IMG/VR virus record: IMGVR_UViG_3300033143_001281
Coordinates: 1 to 64,000 of that record
Reading direction: 5' to 3' (one strand)
Length of the DNA stretch: 64,000 nt
From: a virus
A model generated the notes under the pieces. That model was not told the origin of the DNA. It saw only the letters and a program-made list of their open reading frames with translations, and made no database searches. Numbering within the stretch: the first letter of the stretch is position 1; every line of letters starts with the position of its first letter. Shown here piece after piece: positions 1 through 20,403 of the stretch. Position numbers and translations under genes: made by a program.

Positions 1-13
1 ATCCGGCCATCTG

Positions 14-87
14 TGATCCCACAAGGATTTGAACCTTGAACCTACAGCTTAGAAGGCTGTTGCTCTATCCAGTTGAGCTATGGGACC
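14..87 (-). tRNA. trnR: tRNA-Arg (anticodon UCU), CCA not encoded
   Basis: Reverse complement folds as a cloverleaf: acceptor GGTCCCA/TGGGATC, D arm GCTC-AACTGGATA-GAGC, anticodon arm ACAGC-CTTCTAA-GCTGT, T arm CAAGG-TTCAAAT-CCTTG. Confidence 0.95.
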
Positions 88-93
88 ATAAAG

Positions 94-363
94 TTATGAT
101 CTTGAGCCTGAGAAACCTAATTCATAGGATTCAGCTGGATGTTCTTCTATCCACATATGACAGTTTCTGCAAACTGGCATCCATGTAGACACTTCCAAGT
201 GGTATACACCACGGCCATGTTTATGATGGACATCTGTAGCATGCAAAGAACACTTATGGATCTTTGCATGACAGATAGGGTTGTCTTGTAAAAACTTTCT
301 ACGCTTTTTAGTATAGTCAGCATTTATCTTAGACATTTTTTTAGAGACTTTTTTGATGCTCAT
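94..363 (-). CDS. HNH-family zinc-binding endonuclease-like protein
   Basis: CHAKIHKC...ATDVHHKHGRG...VCRNCH pattern typical of small phage HNH proteins. Confidence 0.7.
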   Translation of the reverse strand: MSIKKVSKKMSKINADYTKKRRKFLQDNPICHAKIHKCSLHATDVHHKHGRGVYHLEVSTWMPVCRNCHMWIEEHPAESYELGFSGSRS

Positions 364-880
364 TTGGTTTTAAAGTGAAATAATTTTTTGGTAATAATCC
401 TATTGACATAAACTTTAATATTACATCTTCATAAGATATACCAAGTTCTTTAAATGTAAATGTATTTTTGTAATCATCTAATGTTTCTTCAGCTGGTATA
501 CTTACTATATACTGTGCTGTTGGTGAATTTTTAAATGTTTTACTAAAATAAGCATTTATTCTTTTATTACAAAGTGTTTGTTTCCAAGCATTTATCTCTC
601 TTTGCCCACGTTTCCAAACTTTTGTAATGCGCCTTTTCTTATCCCAATGTAGTTTAGTAACTTCTTCAGGTTTATAAACTCTAAGTCCATGCAATACACG
701 TTTAAACAAAAAATGTTGGTATGGATTAAGTTTACTATATTCTATATTATTAACTATAGAAGGCGGATGTAATTGATATTCTTCTAGTATTCCTAGATAT
801 TGATAGCGCTCAATACGTTTACTTAATTGAAGTTCTTTCTCATTGAGTCTAATTTTTGATATTTGTTCTATTGATAACAT
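341..880 (-). CDS. hypothetical protein
   Basis: 179-aa ORF overlapping the HNH gene, A-rich leader. Confidence 0.7.
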   Translation of the reverse strand: MLSIEQISKIRLNEKELQLSKRIERYQYLGILEEYQLHPPSIVNNIEYSKLNPYQHFLFKRVLHGLRVYKPEEVTKLHWDKKRRITKVWKRGQREINAWKQTLCNKRINAYFSKTFKNSPTAQYIVSIPAEETLDDYKNTFTFKELGISYEDVILKFMSIGLLPKNYFTLKPNEHQKSL

Positions 881-918
881 ACATGTTTATTTATTTAATT
901 AAGTGGATTTAAATGTCA

Positions 919-955
919 AAGAGGGAACAAATAGTTTGCACTATAGTCCCCTCTT
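919..955 (-). terminator. stem-loop (terminator or processing site)
   Basis: Minus strand AAGAGGGGAC-U-AUAGU-GCAA-ACUAU-UU-GUUCCCUCUU, with a GNRA loop and a G-U pair that works only on the minus strand. Confidence 0.55.
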
Positions 956-976
956 ATCCATTTTCAGAAATTAATC

Positions 977-1540
977 TTATAGTTCAAAAGTTTCTTCTTC
1001 TAAAACTTCTTCTTCTACAGAATCTTCTACTGTTTCTTCTACTTCATTATCAACTTCTTCTGAATCAGTATCAATTCCAAAAGCTTGTGCTGGTGTAACT
1101 TTAGCAGCATTTACTGCATTATTGTTAGTACCATTAGCCTCTCTTATAGCATCACCATTATCATGTGCTATAAGTACATCCTCTGCTGTTTGATCTTTAG
1201 TAAAGAATGTTTTCCTATAAATAGGTTGACCATCTACACAACAAATAATACCTGTATCACCAGCCATTTTGATATCTCTGTCTGGATTACTAGCATTAAA
1301 AGGTGTTAATGATTCTTTGATTATGATTTTACCAGAAATTTCACTAACTCCATTGTATATGTACTGTAAATCTTCTAATTTACCTTGAATTAATGTGCTG
1401 ATACGTTTTACACTTGCCCAACCTGAAGCTGAATATACAACTTTGTTTGACTCTAATCTAACGTGACCAAATTCTGGATTTTGTGATTGACGGACAACAT
1501 TTCCCATGTCATCTGCCACTACTTGACATTTGTTTTGCAT
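977..1540 (-). CDS. hypothetical protein with acidic tail, possible single-stranded DNA-binding protein
   Basis: Beta-rich-looking N-terminal ~130 aa followed by a strongly acidic tail ending EEETFEL. Confidence 0.55.
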   Translation of the reverse strand: MQNKCQVVADDMGNVVRQSQNPEFGHVRLESNKVVYSASGWASVKRISTLIQGKLEDLQYIYNGVSEISGKIIIKESLTPFNASNPDRDIKMAGDTGIICCVDGQPIYRKTFFTKDQTAEDVLIAHDNGDAIREANGTNNNAVNAAKVTPAQAFGIDTDSEEVDNEVEETVEDSVEEEVLEEETFEL

Positions 1541-1583
1541 TTTTAATAAAATTTAATTGTGAATAAAATAAGTAAATTGATGA

Positions 1584-1844
1584 TTAAGAATCATCTGAAT
1601 GAAAATACGGGTCTTCTAATTTTTCAAAAGCGCTAATCTCATCTAACGTTGGTTCATTTTCTTCAATGAACTCCTCCTGGATATCAGGTGGTGTTTTAGC
1701 AAAGCTATTGTAAAATGGGTTACCCACTTCCTTTGTATATGCTGAACTAAGGCCATTAAGATCTTTATACTCTTCATCTGTTAATGAAAGGTACTGTTCA
1801 AGAGAACACTCTATTATGCGACCATTAGGAAGTTGTATTATCAT
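1584..1844 (-). CDS. hypothetical acidic protein
   Basis: 86-aa ORF with a TATCTTTAC promoter-like element upstream. Confidence 0.65.
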   Translation of the reverse strand: MIIQLPNGRIIECSLEQYLSLTDEEYKDLNGLSSAYTKEVGNPFYNSFAKTPPDIQEEFIEENEPTLDEISAFEKLEDPYFHSDDS

Positions 1845-1956
1845 TATCTTATTAAAAACTATTGTAAAGATAATAATATAATTTCCTTTGAGTCACTTAA
1901 TATAACCTAATTTGACTATAATTCAAAAATAATAAGCATTAATATAGCTAACGCAA

Positions 1957-2208
1957 TTAGATTACGGTTAACTTTCTGCCTACTCTTCTAATATATTTGT
2001 TTAATTTGAGCTCTTTAATCCATCTATTAACACTAGATTGACTTGTGTCAAGATGATCTGCTAATGTACTGATTGATGGCCAACATTGTCTTTGTTTATC
2101 TGCGTAACAGCATAATAAACTATACAATGCTTTAGCTCCTATAGATACTGATGGGTCTGATATTACTTCATGTTTAACTATACCAAACCTATTCTGATTC
2201 TTGTACAT
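1957..2208 (-). CDS. helix-turn-helix DNA-binding protein (replication-initiator N-terminal-like)
   Basis: SIGAKALYSLL...CWPSISTLADHLDTSQSSVNRWIKEL winged-HTH signature. Confidence 0.75.
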   Translation of the reverse strand: MYKNQNRFGIVKHEVISDPSVSIGAKALYSLLCCYADKQRQCWPSISTLADHLDTSQSSVNRWIKELKLNKYIRRVGRKLTVI

Positions 2209-2398
2209 GATCCCTTAGTAACCTAAGCAATGCTGTATTATCATCAGTTTCAGCAGCCAACTCTTCATCTTGTAAGTTAAAAGTTCTATTCATGAATGCA
2301 CCAAAAGACTTACCATCTAATGCTTTTTCTCTTTCTTCTTTAACTTTCAGATACTTCTTGAGGTACGATTGAATTGCTTCCGTTGATAGTTTTGCCAT
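2189..2398 (-). CDS. hypothetical protein
   Basis: 69-aa ORF overlapping both neighbours. Confidence 0.6.
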   Translation of the reverse strand: MAKLSTEAIQSYLKKYLKVKEEREKALDGKSFGAFMNRTFNLQDEELAAETDDNTALLRLLRDHVQESE

Positions 2399-2906
2399 TA
2401 TTATTAATTTTATCTAATGAATTCTTTAGTTTATAATAAGGGATATCAGACTTTCTAGTACGCTTTACATATAAAGGATTTATAGTGTGTTCATAGCGTT
2501 TAATTTCTCTATCCCCGTTATGATATAAGATATCAATTTTAATTGAACTATGAAAGGGATTGTATTTTTTATTTGATGACCATGAAGTATCACCCATTAC
2601 AATTCCATATACATCTCCGCTTGAATGCATTAAACCCATATCATTTAAAATATCAATTTCATACTCACTACCTGCATGATAACTTGGTGGTGTAAATCTT
2701 ACATAATCACCAACATTTACTTTTTTATAGGGTTCATCAAGTAACATAAGATGAACTGCACCCTCTAATGCATTATCAGGTATTGAATTAGCTAATAATT
2801 CTGTAATATGCTTTACATTAGCTCTTATATTTACATTTTGCGTGTCTATTAATTTCTCAAATAGTACTTTTATTACATCTTTATGTAATGTTATTGTATC
2901 AGACAT
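2340..2906 (-). CDS. hypothetical protein
   Basis: 188-aa ORF with A-rich leader. Confidence 0.7.
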   Translation of the reverse strand: MSDTITLHKDVIKVLFEKLIDTQNVNIRANVKHITELLANSIPDNALEGAVHLMLLDEPYKKVNVGDYVRFTPPSYHAGSEYEIDILNDMGLMHSSGDVYGIVMGDTSWSSNKKYNPFHSSIKIDILYHNGDREIKRYEHTINPLYVKRTRKSDIPYYKLKNSLDKINNNGKTINGSNSIVPQEVSES

Positions 2907-2928
2907 ATTTATTATTTTTAAAAATTAA

Positions 2929-3089
2929 AGTCAAGCAGTCCCTATCCTAAACAAGTATGATAAAAGAATAAAGATCTGCTTGACTGTTGGTCCACTTAAC
3001 CAATAAAACTGTAAGTCACAGGACCAATTGTACTAGTGTTATTATATAGTATATAATTACTGGTACTGTTAGTGTGTCACCCGTGACAC
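2929..3089 (-). ncRNA. candidate structured RNA: four tandem hairpins
   Basis: Inverted repeats 2929-2938/2976-2985 (plus an inner 10 bp with 3 G-U on the minus strand), 2987-2993/3021-3027, 3030-3037/3059-3066, 3074-3080/3083-3089. Confidence 0.55.
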
Positions 3090-3091
3090 TT

Positions 3092-3937
3092 TTAATTTAT
3101 AAATCTATGTAAATCTGATGGTTCAAATACATATTCAGGAGTATTGACATAATTCATGTCATCTAATGAATACCATACATCATTTGTAACCGGATTTAAT
3201 AAGATGTGTTGTTCTTGAGCTGGCATATAGCTTTGGGCAAGCATAAATATTTTATGACCATTGCTGTTAACTGCCATATCTACTACTGTAATAGCATGAC
3301 CAGGAAATCCTCCAGTGATAAATACATCACCGGTTTTCATTTCCCAATAGTTAACATCCTTTGTATCATATTTCTCTATTGAGTATGTACCTGCATAACT
3401 CCAGATTAGATCTAACCAACGTCTGAATGTTTTACAAGTATCTTTACGACTTTTACCCCATACTGTAACTATATCACGCCCACCATTAAGTGGTGTTGGT
3501 GATGCTCCCTTAAGATAATCTAGATAAGATGATTTATATCCGTTTGTAAAACTGAATTGTAATTTATCTAAGTTACCTTGAGAATAATTATATGATGCTC
3601 TCAAGTATATAGCAGCATCAGCACAGTGATGTAAATCTCTTTTACCGATATCATATTTAAATACTGCTGCGTATATATAATTATTATGTTTAACACTACC
3701 ATTGAAGTATTTTACTTCTGTCTTTTGCTTTAAAGGATGATCAGTTAACCAATCAGCATAATCTGACTCAATGAGTCTTTCATATCCTGATGGTAACTGA
3801 AACAAATTCTTGATGCTTAAGTGGCCGTGTTTGTTATACGTTTGTGCTTGACATTGCATAACGAAGCCCAGTGCTATTATAAGCGTTATTAAATAGACTG
3901 TGCCTCCATTAAAACGAGTGTTATTATTTAAACCCAT
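3092..3937 (-). CDS. DUF4846-like exported protein (Cys/His, putative papain-like hydrolase)
   Basis: N-terminal signal peptide; DIGKRDLHHCADAAIYLRA, YAGTYS, GDVFITGGFPGHA and LAQSYMPAQEQHIL motifs recalled from Bacteroidetes DUF4846 proteins. Confidence 0.75.
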   Translation of the reverse strand: MGLNNNTRFNGGTVYLITLIIALGFVMQCQAQTYNKHGHLSIKNLFQLPSGYERLIESDYADWLTDHPLKQKTEVKYFNGSVKHNNYIYAAVFKYDIGKRDLHHCADAAIYLRASYNYSQGNLDKLQFSFTNGYKSSYLDYLKGASPTPLNGGRDIVTVWGKSRKDTCKTFRRWLDLIWSYAGTYSIEKYDTKDVNYWEMKTGDVFITGGFPGHAITVVDMAVNSNGHKIFMLAQSYMPAQEQHILLNPVTNDVWYSLDDMNYVNTPEYVFEPSDLHRFIN

Positions 3938-4272
3938 TTTAACTCAATTGTAAAGAATGGTAATACAACTAATATAGCCATACCATTTCCATATCCTTTA
4001 GTATCTACGGCTAACGCTAAGCCAAATACTGGTGCAAATTCAAATTTAAACTTTGGTAACATATCTGTTTTACTCATAAATGATGCAAAAAATATACAAT
4101 TTATATATGTTCCAATAAGAATTGTTAATAGCCCTAATCCTAAGAGATAATTATCATCTCCGACCATACTATCACTTCTATCAAGGGTTAAATTTCCCAA
4201 AGTTATTGTAACTATAATTGGTAGTAGTACTACGAAGAATAGTTTTACGAATGATTTCAACATTATTTTCAT
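3928..4272 (-). CDS. small membrane protein
   Basis: At least two clear hydrophobic helices. Confidence 0.7.
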   Translation of the reverse strand: MKIMLKSFVKLFFVVLLPIIVTITLGNLTLDRSDSMVGDDNYLLGLGLLTILIGTYINCIFFASFMSKTDMLPKFKFEFAPVFGLALAVDTKGYGNGMAILVVLPFFTIELKWV

Positions 4273-4301
4273 TTCTATTAATTATTTAATTAGTTACTTG
4301 A

Positions 4302-4775
4302 TTAATTTTCTGTTACTGTATCTCCATTGTTATAAAACGTGTTTATATCAAATGGCACAAGAAATCTATTCCATTGATTACCGACTTGATAATCTATTTT
4401 ATCTTGTTGATTTATGTAATCTATGTCAGTTATTACTATAACATCTATATCAATTACAAATGTATCAACAAAATTTCCTGATGCCCATTGCATAAATTGT
4501 TCTGCGTCACTGGATATATTAGTATTTTGTGCATAGTCTAACCATTGATTCCAAACAAATTCATATTTGGTTTCTGCGGTTATACCATTGCTATCTATAC
4601 TATAGAAGCCTAACAATATATACATAGTTTCATTATTCTGAGCAAAACTATATGCTTCAGAGAATACTTTGACTGTGTCTGTATTCATTTGATTTACCTC
4701 TGGTGTAAACAAAGGCTCTTGCTCACAGCTTGTAATCATAACTGCAAGCAAGAATATTTGCATTATCTTCCCCAT
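4302..4775 (-). CDS. putative lipoprotein
   Basis: Signal II peptide MGKIMQIFLLAVMITS-C. Confidence 0.7.
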   Translation of the reverse strand: MGKIMQIFLLAVMITSCEQEPLFTPEVNQMNTDTVKVFSEAYSFAQNNETMYILLGFYSIDSNGITAETKYEFVWNQWLDYAQNTNISSDAEQFMQWASGNFVDTFVIDIDVIVITDIDYINQQDKIDYQVGNQWNRFLVPFDINTFYNNGDTVTEN

Positions 4776-4930
4776 TTGGATCTCTTATGTTTTTTTTTAG
4801 GTTTCCAATAGTTCTTCTTAGCGAACTTTTTCTTTTGGTTTACAGCTCCACATGATCTTGACGATCCACAGGATTGTAATACTGGTGCAGCTATAAATAA
4901 GAATGCACATAAATAAAGAATCTTTCTCAT
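4763..4930 (-). CDS. small basic lipoprotein (55 aa, not in ORF track)
   Basis: MRKILYLCAFLFIAAPVLQS-CGSSRSCGAVNQKKKFAKKNYWKPKKKHKRSKWGR; lipobox; fills the gap between neighbours. Confidence 0.7.
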   Translation of the reverse strand: MRKILYLCAFLFIAAPVLQSCGSSRSCGAVNQKKKFAKKNYWKPKKKHKRSKWGR

Positions 4931-4942
4931 AATACTTGTTTT

Positions 4943-5227
4943 TTAGTTGTAACTATTAGCATACTCTAGAAAATCTAATGTATGTTGATGTGTTACAGTG
5001 ATTAATTGATTTTGTTTAGCTAGGTATCTCAACGATTCATTATGCTCAAGTTCTAACTCAAGCTCTATTAATGATGGAGAACCTATTTCTTTACGGTTTA
5101 CACGACTATGTTCCATATCTCCGGTAAAGAGATTAACGAACTCATCTTGTTCACGGCTATATAAGATAACACCTATGGCATTACCCCATGTAGCAAACTT
5201 TTCTGGATAATTGATTTTTACTTTCAT
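4943..5227 (-). CDS. hypothetical protein
   Basis: 94-aa ORF with leader AAAAACAAGT-ATG. Confidence 0.65.
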   Translation of the reverse strand: MKVKINYPEKFATWGNAIGVILYSREQDEFVNLFTGDMEHSRVNRKEIGSPSLIELELELEHNESLRYLAKQNQLITVTHQHTLDFLEYANSYN

Positions 5228-5252
5228 ACTTGTTTTTATTAATGATTAATTA

Positions 5253-5444
5253 TTATATTTCTAAAGCTTTCAAAATGTTTTTAGTATAATTCTTTAGCCT
5301 TAATTTTGCTTCTTCTTTTGTTTTAAAGTACATTGATTCACGGCTATAAGGCATACCTTCTTGTGTACGACCTATGTAATAACCTGCTGCTGATTTTAGT
5401 ACTTGTAATTCTGAATATGTTTCTCCAACTATATTATTAGACAT
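5253..5444 (-). CDS. conserved-looking small phage protein
   Basis: LQVLKSAAGYYIG...PYSRES.YF.TKEEA motif, recalled from small phage/plasmid proteins. Confidence 0.7.
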   Translation of the reverse strand: MSNNIVGETYSELQVLKSAAGYYIGRTQEGMPYSRESMYFKTKEEAKLRLKNYTKNILKALEI

Positions 5445-5761
5445 AACGATTTAGTATTAGTGATTAATTGCAATATTGCGGGTACTATGTCTATTATCCT
5501 ATAGAGGAAGAGACATAATAATATATAACTAGAGTGCTTATCCTTGAAGGCTTACACTATTTCAGAATAGTAAGTGGTATTGCTTGACTCATTGCTCTAG
5601 TTATACTTATGTTAGCTATATATATATTATACGTTGCTTTAGTTTTTTTCAAGTGGTAATAAGTGGGTTTTTGTGGGGTTATTGACCACACATTCTCTGT
5701 GCAATGCACACAATTAATTAAATATTAGTTGAGAAAAATGCTAGATAGTAACGTTTATTAC

Positions 5762-5788
5762 AAAAACAAGGGTTTTACCCCTTGTTTC
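5762..5788 (-). terminator. intrinsic terminator
   Basis: Minus strand GAAACAAGGGG-TAAAA-CCCTTGTTTTT just after ORF 5796..6131. Confidence 0.65.
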
Positions 5789-5795
5789 TTGTGGA

Positions 5796-6131
5796 TTAGA
5801 TTGGTTCAGCCCAAAACATTCCTGTTTCTTCACCGGTTTGTGTGTCAACAACAGGTTTATTGCTGAGTTTCCACTCAGGTAGCAAATCCCCTTTATTTAG
5901 CGTGGACATAAAGTCCCGCGCTAAAGGATGGTCTGCTGTGACCTTATTGCCATCACTATCATTAATAGATAGCAACCCAAACACACGGTTTTGCTTTGAT
6001 GCAATCACAGCAACACCGGCTAATGTGGTCTTAATAGGAGCACCACTCTCCACAACACTTATGCAATAAGTGTTATTCACTTTGTTTACGCAATGCATAT
6101 GCACACGCAATTCTTTTGCTTTTTCTTCCAT
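5796..6131 (-). CDS. early protein, paralog of 6774..7103
   Basis: Shared FG.LS, A.HP, LN.GD..P...LS...VVD..TGEET...W.E motifs. Confidence 0.75.
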   Translation of the reverse strand: MEEKAKELRVHMHCVNKVNNTYCISVVESGAPIKTTLAGVAVIASKQNRVFGLLSINDSDGNKVTADHPLARDFMSTLNKGDLLPEWKLSNKPVVDTQTGEETGMFWAEPI

Positions 6132-6450
6132 AATGTATAAATTTTAAGATTCAATGCATAGATGGGGAGCCGAAGGCATAAGAATATGAGCAGATGGAAG
6201 TAACACAAGAACCTGAGCAGATAGTAACAAAAAACTCTCACAAGGTTGCACCTTGCCGTACTATCTTTGAACTCATAGAGTGTAGCCTTGATGAAGTAAA
6301 TCATAAATATTTACCACCTGCAATTGGATGAGAGTTTAATAAGCTACCATAAGAGTGTGGTACAACGTGGACTCATGATTTGCAAATCAATTGTCAATCT
6401 CCGGACCAGACCCAATTTAATGTTTGTGCTCTTAAGGTAGTTATATATTA

Positions 6451-6474
6451 AAGAGTGTGCTTTCACACACCCTT
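6451..6474 (-). terminator. stem-loop/terminator
   Basis: Minus strand AAGGGUGUGU-GAAA-GCACACUCUU. Confidence 0.55.
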
Positions 6475-6642
6475 ATTGTTACTTTTTTTTAAAGCATCTT
6501 CAAGTCTTTGAAGTCTAAGTTTCTTTTCTTCTTGCCATTCTTCATAGCATTGTTGACATGTGTGTACTTCATCACACGTACATGTTAGCTCAGGACTTAT
6601 ACTATATAAATTCCAAGCATCTTGTGCATCTTCTAAAAACAT
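6463..6642 (-). CDS. small zinc-finger-like protein (59 aa, not in ORF track)
   Basis: MFLEDAQDAWNLYSISPELTCTCDEVHTCQQCYEEWQEEKKLRLQRLEDALKKSNNKGV; CxC-x5-CxxC; bracketed by two terminator-like hairpins. Confidence 0.65.
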   Translation of the reverse strand: MFLEDAQDAWNLYSISPELTCTCDEVHTCQQCYEEWQEEKKLRLQRLEDALKKSNNKGV

Positions 6643-6659
6643 AATTGTTAGTTTAGGTT

Positions 6660-6689
6660 AAAAAAAGGGTGTGCTATTACACACACCCT
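6660..6689 (-). terminator. intrinsic terminator
   Basis: Minus strand AGGGUGUG-UGUAAUAG-CACACCCU followed by a U run. Confidence 0.65.
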
Positions 6690-6773
6690 GTTAAAAGTTG
6701 ACACTCGTTGGTTATCTTACAGCCTGATGTCCATTTAGTTTAAAGGCAAACTGTGTCAATTTTTGTTCTTGGA

Positions 6774-7103
6774 TTAGGCTTGTTCAACCCAACGCAAGTT
6801 AGTTTCTTCCCCTGTGTTCAAGTCCACTACGGCATTGTCACTTAGTTGGAAACCCGGCATTTCATCTCCTTGGTTCAATTTAGTTTGCAAGGCTTTAATT
6901 GTTGGATGGTTAGCACGCATTACCTGATTAGTTTCAGGGTCAATGAGGCTTAATACACCAAAAGTGATGTTACCATTAGTTCTTGTTCCAACTTTCATTC
7001 CTGCAAGTTCTCCTACTTTGTTTGAGATAGGCTTGTCTGTTACGATGATTGTAGCAGTCCCTGTGTTCTCATTTACTCTTAGTTTTCTGAAAAATACTGA
7101 CAT
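6774..7103 (-). CDS. early protein, paralog of 5796..6131
   Basis: First gene of the minus-strand block; shares motifs with 5796..6131. Confidence 0.75.
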   Translation of the reverse strand: MSVFFRKLRVNENTGTATIIVTDKPISNKVGELAGMKVGTRTNGNITFGVLSLIDPETNQVMRANHPTIKALQTKLNQGDEMPGFQLSDNAVVDLNTGEETNLRWVEQA

Positions 7104-19062: not shown

Positions 19063-19095
19063 AACAAGTATTAATTATTTAAAACCAACATAATT

Positions 19096-20403
19096 ATGGC
19101 AACTGAAACACAAACTGTGAATAGTAAAGTAGAACAAGTAGATATTAATTTAGATGAAATATTTAACGCTGCACCTAGTGGCGCTGATATGATTCAAGAT
19201 GATAAGAAGCAGAAAAATATTTTTTCTGGAAGTTCTGCTAAAGCAGACTTTAGTTTTGCAGATCCTGATAAAGATGAAAAGGATGACCTAAATGCTAAAG
19301 TTGAAGCTAAAGAAGAAAATACTGAAAATGAAACAGAGGTAACAAATACCCCTGAAAATGAAACAGAGGTAAAAGAAACTGAAACAAAGGTAGATGATAT
19401 TATTGATTCTTTAAATGAAGTTGAAGAGGAAGATGATAAAACAGATGCACCAAAAAGAGGTAGAAAATCTATTTCTGGTATATCAGATGTTTTTAACAAA
19501 TTAATTAAAGATGATAAAATTGTTCCTTTTGATGATGATAAAGCATTAGAAGATTATACTGCTAAAGATTGGGAAGAATTAATTCAAGCTAATTTAGAAG
19601 AAAAAGCTAATCAAGTTAGAAGAGAAACCCCTAAACAGTTTTTTCAGTCTTTACCAGAAGAATTACAAATTGCTGCAAAGTATGTAGCGGATGGTGGTAA
19701 AGATTTAAAAGGTTTATTTTCTACATTATCACAGGTAGAAACCCATAAAAGTTTAGATGTAAAGAATGCTTCTGATCAAGAAAGAATCATTACAGAATAT
19801 TTATCTGCAACTGGCTATGGTACTACAGAAGAAATTGCTGAAGAAATAGAAATTTGGAAAGACTTAGGAAAGTTAGAACAACAAGCAAACAAGTTCAAAC
19901 CTAAGTTAGATAAGATGCAGGAAAAAGTTGTTGCTCAAAAATTAAAAGAACAAGAGTTAAAGAAAGCACAACAAGAGCAAGCATCAAAGGCATATATGAA
20001 AAATGTATATGATACATTAAAAGAAGGAAAATTAGGAGATATCAAAGTTGATAGAAAGACACAGGCTATGTTATATAATGGGTTAGTACAACCTAATTAT
20101 CCTTCAGTAAGTGGACGTAACACAAATTTACTAGGTCACTTACTAGAAAAATATCAATTTGTTGAACCAAACTACGGATTAATATCTGAGGCATTATGGT
20201 TATTGCAAGATCCAGAAGGATATAAAGCAAAAATTATGGATAAAGGTGCACAGAAAAGTGTAGAAAAAACAGTTAGAAAATTGAAGACTGAGCAATCAAA
20301 TGCAGGAGGAGCATCATTGGGTGTTAATAGAGCGGAAGCAGAAAGCAAAAGATCTTCAAAAAGAAAACTAAGTAGACCAACAAATATTTTTAAACGAATT
20401 TAA
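19096..20403 (+). CDS. acidic scaffold-like capsid assembly protein
   Basis: Between portal and MCP; very acidic N-half, coiled-coil C-half. Confidence 0.7.
   Translation: MATETQTVNSKVEQVDINLDEIFNAAPSGADMIQDDKKQKNIFSGSSAKADFSFADPDKDEKDDLNAKVEAKEENTENETEVTNTPENETEVKETETKVDDIIDSLNEVEEEDDKTDAPKRGRKSISGISDVFNKLIKDDKIVPFDDDKALEDYTAKDWEELIQANLEEKANQVRRETPKQFFQSLPEELQIAAKYVADGGKDLKGLFSTLSQVETHKSLDVKNASDQERIITEYLSATGYGTTEEIAEEIEIWKDLGKLEQQANKFKPKLDKMQEKVVAQKLKEQELKKAQQEQASKAYMKNVYDTLKEGKLGDIKVDRKTQAMLYNGLVQPNYPSVSGRNTNLLGHLLEKYQFVEPNYGLISEALWLLQDPEGYKAKIMDKGAQKSVEKTVRKLKTEQSNAGGASLGVNRAEAESKRSSKRKLSRPTNIFKRI
19321..19380 (+). repeat. 30-nt tandem duplication in scaffold gene
   Basis: CTGAAAATGAAACAGAGGTAA occurs twice 30 nt apart (TENETEV/PENETEV). 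Confidence 0.8.

Follow-up and report, generated by a model that had tools for sequence, protein, structure and literature searches.

Kissing antisense RNAs of the OxyS-fhlA type are bacterial stress sRNAs with their own promoters and a dependence on Hfq, and in phage T4 the protein repressor RegA turns down together a set of genes that carry a short operator across the AUG. The heads of phage operons also bear conserved hairpins in leader or intercistronic positions, as in the lambda nut and HK022 put antitermination RNAs and the T7 RNase III hairpins; nut combines a linear box with a hairpin box, and RNase III sites consist of two helices of ~10 bp around an internal loop. The c4 RNA of phages P1 and P7 is a discrete RNA of ~77 nt that is processed by RNase P and has a role in immunity. 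It is processed from a longer operon transcript, and its loops occlude the ribosome-binding site of genes of the same phage (PMC5320573). The crAss-like Cellulophaga phage phi14:2 has, within its early region, two long intergenic stretches whose transcription exceeds that of most genes (bioRxiv 10.1101/2020.03.07.982082). The timing of phage gene expression in Bacteroidota is poorly known, and translation control without Shine-Dalgarno pairing is still being worked out.

Here we analysed a 64,000-nt stretch of viral DNA (the window). The full genome is a single contig of 80,270 bp with 32% G+C, and the window covers its first 64 kb. The terminase of this phage shares ~25% identity with the terminases of crAss-like phages that infect Bacteroides, Flavobacterium and Cellulophaga; the phage itself appears crAss-related and lytic. 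About 17 small ORFs form a minus-strand run at 94..7103 that has a tRNA-Arg gene at its end, and a gap within this cassette encodes the structured element described below, the third hairpin of which carries a loop complementary to start codons of the same cassette.

The element resembles c4 (Rfam C4, RF01695; c4-2 motif) in being a phage structured RNA with a loop set against a short site over a ribosome-binding region of the same phage, here over 12 nt at the start of ORF 4943..5227, and whereas c4 is known to be cut from a longer operon transcript, the window element is proposed to be part of one. It differs from c4 in using one loop instead of two, in having as its target the AUG itself with an A-rich, Shine-Dalgarno-less leader, and in the host of the phage, which belongs to the Bacteroidota. 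The c4 and c4-2 families were absent among Rfam matches to positions 2700-3300 at E <= 10, so that the RNA is no C4 member; this cmscan returned only five weak, unrelated matches (best E 0.23), far below gathering scores. The conserved phage RNA element is new and uncatalogued, and its general kind is already known. With the OxyS-fhlA type it shares a short loop-displayed complementarity to a translation initiation region, proposed here, too, to block ribosome binding; those RNAs are discrete sRNAs, whereas the RNA proposed for the window may be part of a longer transcript. As in the RegA regulon, several phage genes share an AUG-overlapping short site, although RegA is a protein and the candidate reader of the site here is an RNA loop. 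The nut, put and T7 hairpins differ in loop size and sequence, and none is known to be complementary to start codons of its own phage. Phage phi14:2 offers a parallel in its non-coding intergenic transcripts, which stem from a region of small genes in a crAss-like phage whose hosts are marine Flavobacteriia, but its early non-coding region is about 1.7 kb long and non-homologous to the window element, and the first 12 kb of its genome, which hold those non-coding regions, contained no copy of the hairpin model or the loop core.

A structured element in the small-gene cassette

The element occupies the 185-nt gap between ORF 3092..3937 and ORF 2340..2906, with hairpin 3 at the downstream end (Table 1). 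Comparison of ten cassette proteins with PHROGs and Pfam gave DUF4846 in ORF 3092..3937 as the sole match, and neither megablast of positions 2000-6000 nor tblastn of the 188-aa ORF found a close phage record. Two other cassette ORFs, 5796-6131 and 6774-7103 (both minus strand), are paralogs with ~37% identity, of which relatives have one or two copies. Elsewhere in the cassette the motif CACTTAAT(C/T)A / TTAATCA recurs 10-25 nt upstream of several start codons in many clades (examples in the window are 896-905 and 5461-5470, both minus strand), at a spacing that misfits sigma-70 and Bacteroidota promoters.

Table 1. Positions of the element, the candidate target boxes and the neighbouring genes in the window.
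Feature	Position	Strand	Description
tRNA-Arg	13-87	-	anticodon TCT; closes the minus-strand cassette
ORF 341..880	341..880	-	penultimate protein-coding gene of the conserved downstream module
Box 3, AACAUGUAUG	878..887	-	imperfect; over the ORF 341..880 start codon; central U.U mismatch with the loop
ORF 2340..2906	2340..2906	-	188 aa; no known family; first gene of the conserved module, always after the element
U-rich tail, UUAAUUUUU	2920..2928	-	directly 3' of the stem; may be a weak terminator tail
Hairpin 3	2929..2985	-	10-bp outer stem, bulged A, 10-bp inner stem, 16-nt loop; 20 bp in total
Hairpin 3, outer stem	2985-2976 with 2938-2929	-	10 bp
Hairpin 3, bulged A	2975	-	
Hairpin 3, inner stem	2974-2965 with 2948-2939	-	10 bp, three G-U pairs
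Hairpin 3, apical loop, UUUAUCAUACUUGUUU	2949..2964	-	16 nt; core CAUACUUGUU is the proposed antisense seed
Hairpin 2 (GGUCC...GGACC)	2987..3027	-	from alignments and the whole-element fold
A/T-rich conserved block	3031..3048	-	TATAAT-like hexamer, then CACTAGTA; once in the genome
Invariant segment, CACUAACAGUACCAGUAAU	3056..3074	-	19 nt; most conserved part of the whole element in alignments
Hairpin 1 (GUGUCAC GG GUGACAC)	3074..3089	-	directly after the stop codon of ORF 3092..3937
ORF 3092..3937	3092..3937	-	281 aa; DUF4846; upstream of the 185-nt gap in this genome
ORF 4763..4930	4763..4930	-	55 aa; lipoprotein-like LQSC signal; ATG 4930-4928
Box 2, AAACAAGUAU	4932..4941	-	leader of ORF 4763..4930; -11.8 kcal/mol, second best of 64 start regions; in some clades only
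ORF 4943..5227	4943..5227	-	94 aa; no known family; start codon 5227-5225
Box 1, AAACAAGUAUGA	5224..5235	-	over the ORF 4943..5227 start codon; 12-nt exact complement to the loop

The first-pass annotation, which was made from the letters of the window, had described a 20-bp minus-strand stem with three G-U pairs under a 16-nt loop, and positions 2985..2929 do fold so. Hairpin 3 had a minimum free energy of -25.5 kcal/mol (z -5.6; none of 200 dinucleotide shuffles was as stable), and the plus-strand reading of the region reached only -16.3. YUNR U-turn motifs occur in its loop, as expected by chance. The whole element folded at -54.9 kcal/mol (z -6.4). Hairpin 1 shows compensatory changes in relatives at four of its five pairs, and several clades share the 3' part of hairpin 2, UGGUUAAGUGGACC. 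When the whole element is folded, GUCACGGG, the 5' arm of hairpin 1 (3074-3089), has an alternative partner in CCUGUGAC of hairpin 2 (3014-3021); this alternative pairing was not seen in relatives. The conserved A/T-rich block at 3031..3048 may represent either a promoter element of the -10 kind or the loop of a hairpin; the TATAAT-like block is conserved upstream, and reading of the sequence found no Bacteroidota TAnnTTTG and no good sigma-70 -35 element. A pseudoknot between the hairpin 3 loop and the 19-nt segment was rejected, as only some of the clades could form its seven pairs with a bulge.

Conservation of the third hairpin in relatives

Relatives were gathered through the DUF4846 protein, through a DNA motif that is invariant in the element, and through a motif pattern with gaps. 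This gave 73 loci with the core pattern from marine viral and metagenome contigs, corresponding to about 35 distinct true copies, and a further scan of viral contigs revealed additional, more divergent variants. Cassette gene order is conserved among the relatives. The element always lies directly upstream of the ORF 2340..2906 homolog, usually with 130-176 nt from motif to ATG, and the gene upstream of the element varies, being DUF4846 in some clades and the ORF 3928..4272 homolog in others. Because the downstream neighbour is fixed and the upstream one is not, the element belongs with the downstream module, from ORF 2340 through ORF 94. As part of a ~185-nt structured region that always stands just upstream of one module, it may be a leader or an intercistronic RNA.

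Folding of 12 representatives showed that each forms 17-20 bp around the loop (z -2.3 to -7.7), with 18 G-U pairs in the sense reading over the set and a less stable reverse complement in 11 of the 12. Among 29 distinct hairpin segments there were 21 versions of the stem, and each of the first eight positions from the loop was occupied by four to six canonical pair types, which is the covariation of a structured RNA read from one strand (pair types taken from single-sequence folds). These counts were made with a custom script on the single-sequence folds; MAFFT with RNAalifold failed to align stems that had diverged so far and yielded no hairpin 3 pairs, whether given the whole element or the hairpin alone. 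A covariance model built from five close sequences recovered the window copy and several distant ones, in alignments that were polluted by reverse-strand and partial matches. Taken together, these comparisons show that hairpin 3 is a real, strand-specific and evolutionarily conserved structure, most likely of RNA.

The loop is 15-18 nt long across the family and its core, CAUACUUGUU, is nearly invariant. Two clades have CAUACAUGUU in its place and one has AAUACUUGUU, while a group that is more distantly related has CAUACCUUGUU and UAUACAUUGUU. Two diverged contigs (L086 and L207) have lost the loop core and kept a short-looped hairpin; since they differ from each other, the loop deletion has persisted.

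Complementarity between the loop and start-codon boxes

The 12-mer AAACAAGTATGA occurs exactly at 2949-2960 (plus strand), in the loop, and at 5224-5235 (minus strand), where it covers the ATG of ORF 4943..5227, as the first-pass annotation had noticed; bulging out one loop A extends the match to 15 pairs, the 15 of 16 nt that it had counted. Its 10-nt match to the lipoprotein leader is likewise exact, with AAACAAGTAT at 4932-4941 (minus strand) just upstream of the ORF 4763..4930 ATG. The duplex with box 1, at -14.2 kcal/mol, was the best among 64 start regions, and the third-best start region reached -8.9, so that only two start regions fall below -10 kcal/mol, both on adjacent genes. A chance frequency for such a match had been called for at the outset. 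When the loop of this one hairpin was shuffled, 1.8% of 500 trials reached -14.2 kcal/mol against the 64 start regions, a modest figure that chance can reach when many hairpins are inspected, and inverted matches of at least 12 nt between distant sites number 694 in the 80-kb genome. The match in a single genome is weak evidence, as p about 0.02 fails correction for the many hairpins that could be inspected.

Relatives carry the complementarity further. Most clades have a matching box, AACAAGUAUG, placed on the start codons of between one and three cassette genes that are not homologous to one another. At the start of the ORF 4943..5227 homolog about ten clades have (A/U/C)AACAAGUAUGAAAAU, although protein identity drops to 47-77%. 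Almost every clade also has the box on its ORF 341..880 homolog, where the central position varies (A, U, C, UC or a deletion); the lipoprotein leader has it in three clades, shifted by 3 nt; and in L171 it is found on the ORF 3928..4272 homolog and on one further ORF. In nine of 16 representative loci a box-bearing start region is the best partner of the loop at p <= 0.05 against shuffled loops, and in one more p is 0.06. The complementarity is thus conserved, but because loop and box are each conserved, its presence across clades is largely one inherited event.

Changes within the loop and the box bear on whether the two evolve together. The box C that faces a loop G has become U four times at different sites, with a G.U pair kept. 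In the L003 clade an AAU variant of the loop matches, over 12 nt, the AUU box on the clade's own lipoprotein leader. In the L141/L103 clade, in which several kb of available upstream sequence contain no ORF 4943 homolog, the loop has a G before CAUAC that matches the C after the AUG of the ORF 341 homolog. The covariation between loop and target that the first-pass annotation had hoped to see in related genomes did not appear: relatives show no Watson-Crick compensatory change, and the one position changed on both sides, where loop U became A facing a box C, puts an A.C mismatch at the centre of the duplex in the L010 and the L141/L103 clades; in L121 the box is then no longer the best partner of the loop. 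Other loci keep one partner only. The loop core is gone in L207, yet the box of its ORF 341 homolog remains; the loop is kept in L079, L156 and L164, which have at most a weak box in the available sequence, and in L147, for which the available sequence includes almost nothing upstream and shows no good box. In the distant L042 and L031 both the box and the loop core of the third hairpin are missing, a joint absence that agrees weakly with a link between the two.

We tentatively favour, at a little less than even confidence, a c4-like antisense loop, situated in a leader or intergenic RNA, that pairs with start-codon boxes and represses translation. The 185-nt gap would encode a minus-strand, gene-sense structured RNA, which might be made as a leader for the downstream module or as an intercistronic segment within a longer transcript, and its third hairpin would expose a single-stranded loop of 15-18 nt. 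The loop core would pair with the box on one to three small non-homologous genes of the same cassette; in the window the predicted targets are ORF 4943..5227 (strongly), ORF 4763..4930 (less) and ORF 341..880 (weakly). Translation in Bacteroidota starts on unstructured A-rich leaders without Shine-Dalgarno pairing, and since initiation is of this kind, a duplex over the AUG would be expected to block the small ribosomal subunit; one of 10-14 bp would exclude it and so lower translation of the boxed genes. We infer the RNA as drawn, its repressive effect and its pairing, be it in trans or in cis inside one long transcript. The antisense-loop reading explains why stems are rewritten while the loop is invariant, why the box is conserved and portable, and why only two start regions pair below -10 kcal/mol. 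The original proposal of a translation-silencing antisense hairpin is partly supported, by the conserved strand-specific hairpin, the near-invariant loop and the conserved box; Watson-Crick co-variation has not been forthcoming.

The presence of the box on different non-homologous genes in different clades fits a regulon tag. A wider proposal, which we hold more loosely than the antisense loop itself, is that marine crAss-related Bacteroidota phages may possess an RNA-read regulon, in which cassette genes bearing the portable tag AACAAGUAUG, non-homologous and differing between lineages, would be silenced together by the invariant loop of one leader RNA. Were this true, it would amount to Shine-Dalgarno-independent timing of translation, possibly a general phage strategy in Bacteroidota. 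The element is a compact, testable case, with a hairpin of ~60 nt that is absent from Rfam, heavy rewriting of its stem, and dozens of marine phage contigs, and it offers a defined 10-nt seed, targets among the phage's own genes, and natural variants (loop deletion, loop insertion and central mismatch). If pairing works, it would provide a simple antisense module for start-codon control in Flavobacteriia and a candidate function for the abundant non-coding RNAs of the crAss-like phage early region. If pairing fails, what remains is a new and conserved leader RNA of phages, and its invariant 19-nt segment calls for explanation.

Alternative roles of the element

The antisense loop has one serious competitor, which is on balance unlikely: a structured leader or intercistronic signal, in which the loop and the 19-nt segment would be read by a protein or by RNA polymerase and the complementarity to the box would be incidental. 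Such a signal could be a nut/put-like processive antitermination site, the binding site of an autoregulatory RNA-binding protein or an RNase III-type processing or stabilising hairpin, possibilities that even jointly we consider somewhat improbable. It would account for the constant position of the element, 130-176 nt upstream of one module whatever the upstream gene, and for the conservation of the linear 19-nt segment, which exceeds that of the loop. Across related loci this segment reads CACUAACA(A/G)UACCAGUA(A/U)U and occurs once per genome, and it is retained in distant relatives (L029, L031 and L042) in which the third hairpin is missing or has another loop. Hairpin 3 also has the architecture of T7-type RNase III substrates, with ~20 bp in two helices of ~10 bp around a bulge or internal loop in an intercistronic position; loop-less variants that keep the box are viable; and loop and box lack Watson-Crick co-variation. 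It leaves unexplained, however, why the loop core exactly complements a conserved box on several non-homologous cassette start codons, and shuffled loops rarely pair equally well. There is also no candidate binding protein, all cassette proteins being without a known family except DUF4846.

The three remaining explanations are less likely than either the antisense loop or the structured signal. The main target of the loop might lie outside the cassette, in the start region of a host mRNA or in a late phage leader, with the cassette boxes secondary or coincidental; we regard this as improbable. It would suit the clades that keep the loop without a cassette box, and the sequence AACAAGTATTAAT, which could be a further target or an unrelated signal, is found in the leader of the late gene 19096..20403 (19063-19075, plus strand) and, in the L005 (1661) and L011 (881) clades, directly after a GC-rich terminator and before the first cassette gene. 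Against it, the boxes of the cassette are themselves conserved, and in most clades nothing pairs better with the loop.

Slightly less probable still is a plain intrinsic terminator or attenuator between two transcription units, for which the loop sequence would be irrelevant. The stable hairpin is followed in the window by UUAAUUUUU, and decent U runs are present in some relatives such as L014 and L126, but in about half of the clades the tail is poor (for example UUAUAGUC or UUAUAACA), with only three or four U in its first 8 nt. The clear terminators of the window phage have short GC stems, loops of 3-6 nt and a U run, in contrast to the AU-rich stems of 17-20 bp and the sequence-conserved loop of 15-18 nt seen here. 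Hairpin 3 lacks the short G+C-rich stem and 3-8-nt loop of an intrinsic terminator, its U run is good in some clades only, and a terminator scan left it uncalled, though it found 13 canonical sites nearby.

Least probable of all is that a DNA-binding protein of the phage recognises AACA-N-GTATG as double-stranded DNA, in either orientation and at several places, one of which by chance lies in the loop: the centre of this motif is the most variable position both in the loop (U/A) and in the ORF 341 box (A/U/C), as in a bipartite site with an uncontacted spacer, but a DNA operator needs neither a fixed start-codon register at three or more genes nor placement at the tip of hairpins whose stems co-vary with sense-strand G-U pairs, and loop variants with one extra base would break it. 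DNA inversion between the inverted 12-mers was rejected, as the contigs compared showed no strand-changing joints and all relatives have one gene order. The box was likewise rejected as a promoter or leaderless start, inspection having found no sigma-70-like or Bacteroidota-type spacing upstream, and its likeness to the 3' region of 16S rRNA (AACAAGGUA), which covers only 6-9 nt, was treated as chance.

Two marine metatranscriptome runs from one sample (X15 and X16) contain assembled contigs of a relative that differs from the window at ~2% of positions. Across both cassette and element these contigs have one flat, low depth; they are mute on transcript ends, strand and level, and may include DNA carry-over. 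A contig end at 3029 was rejected as unusable for placing a transcription start. The bin of the tRNA-Arg gene shows very high depth because tRNA contigs of other organisms match there. One contig of the 98% relative skips positions 5251-5467, a stretch that contains ORF 5253..5444 (63 aa); this gene, being absent from the contig of one relative, is therefore dispensable or variable between strains.
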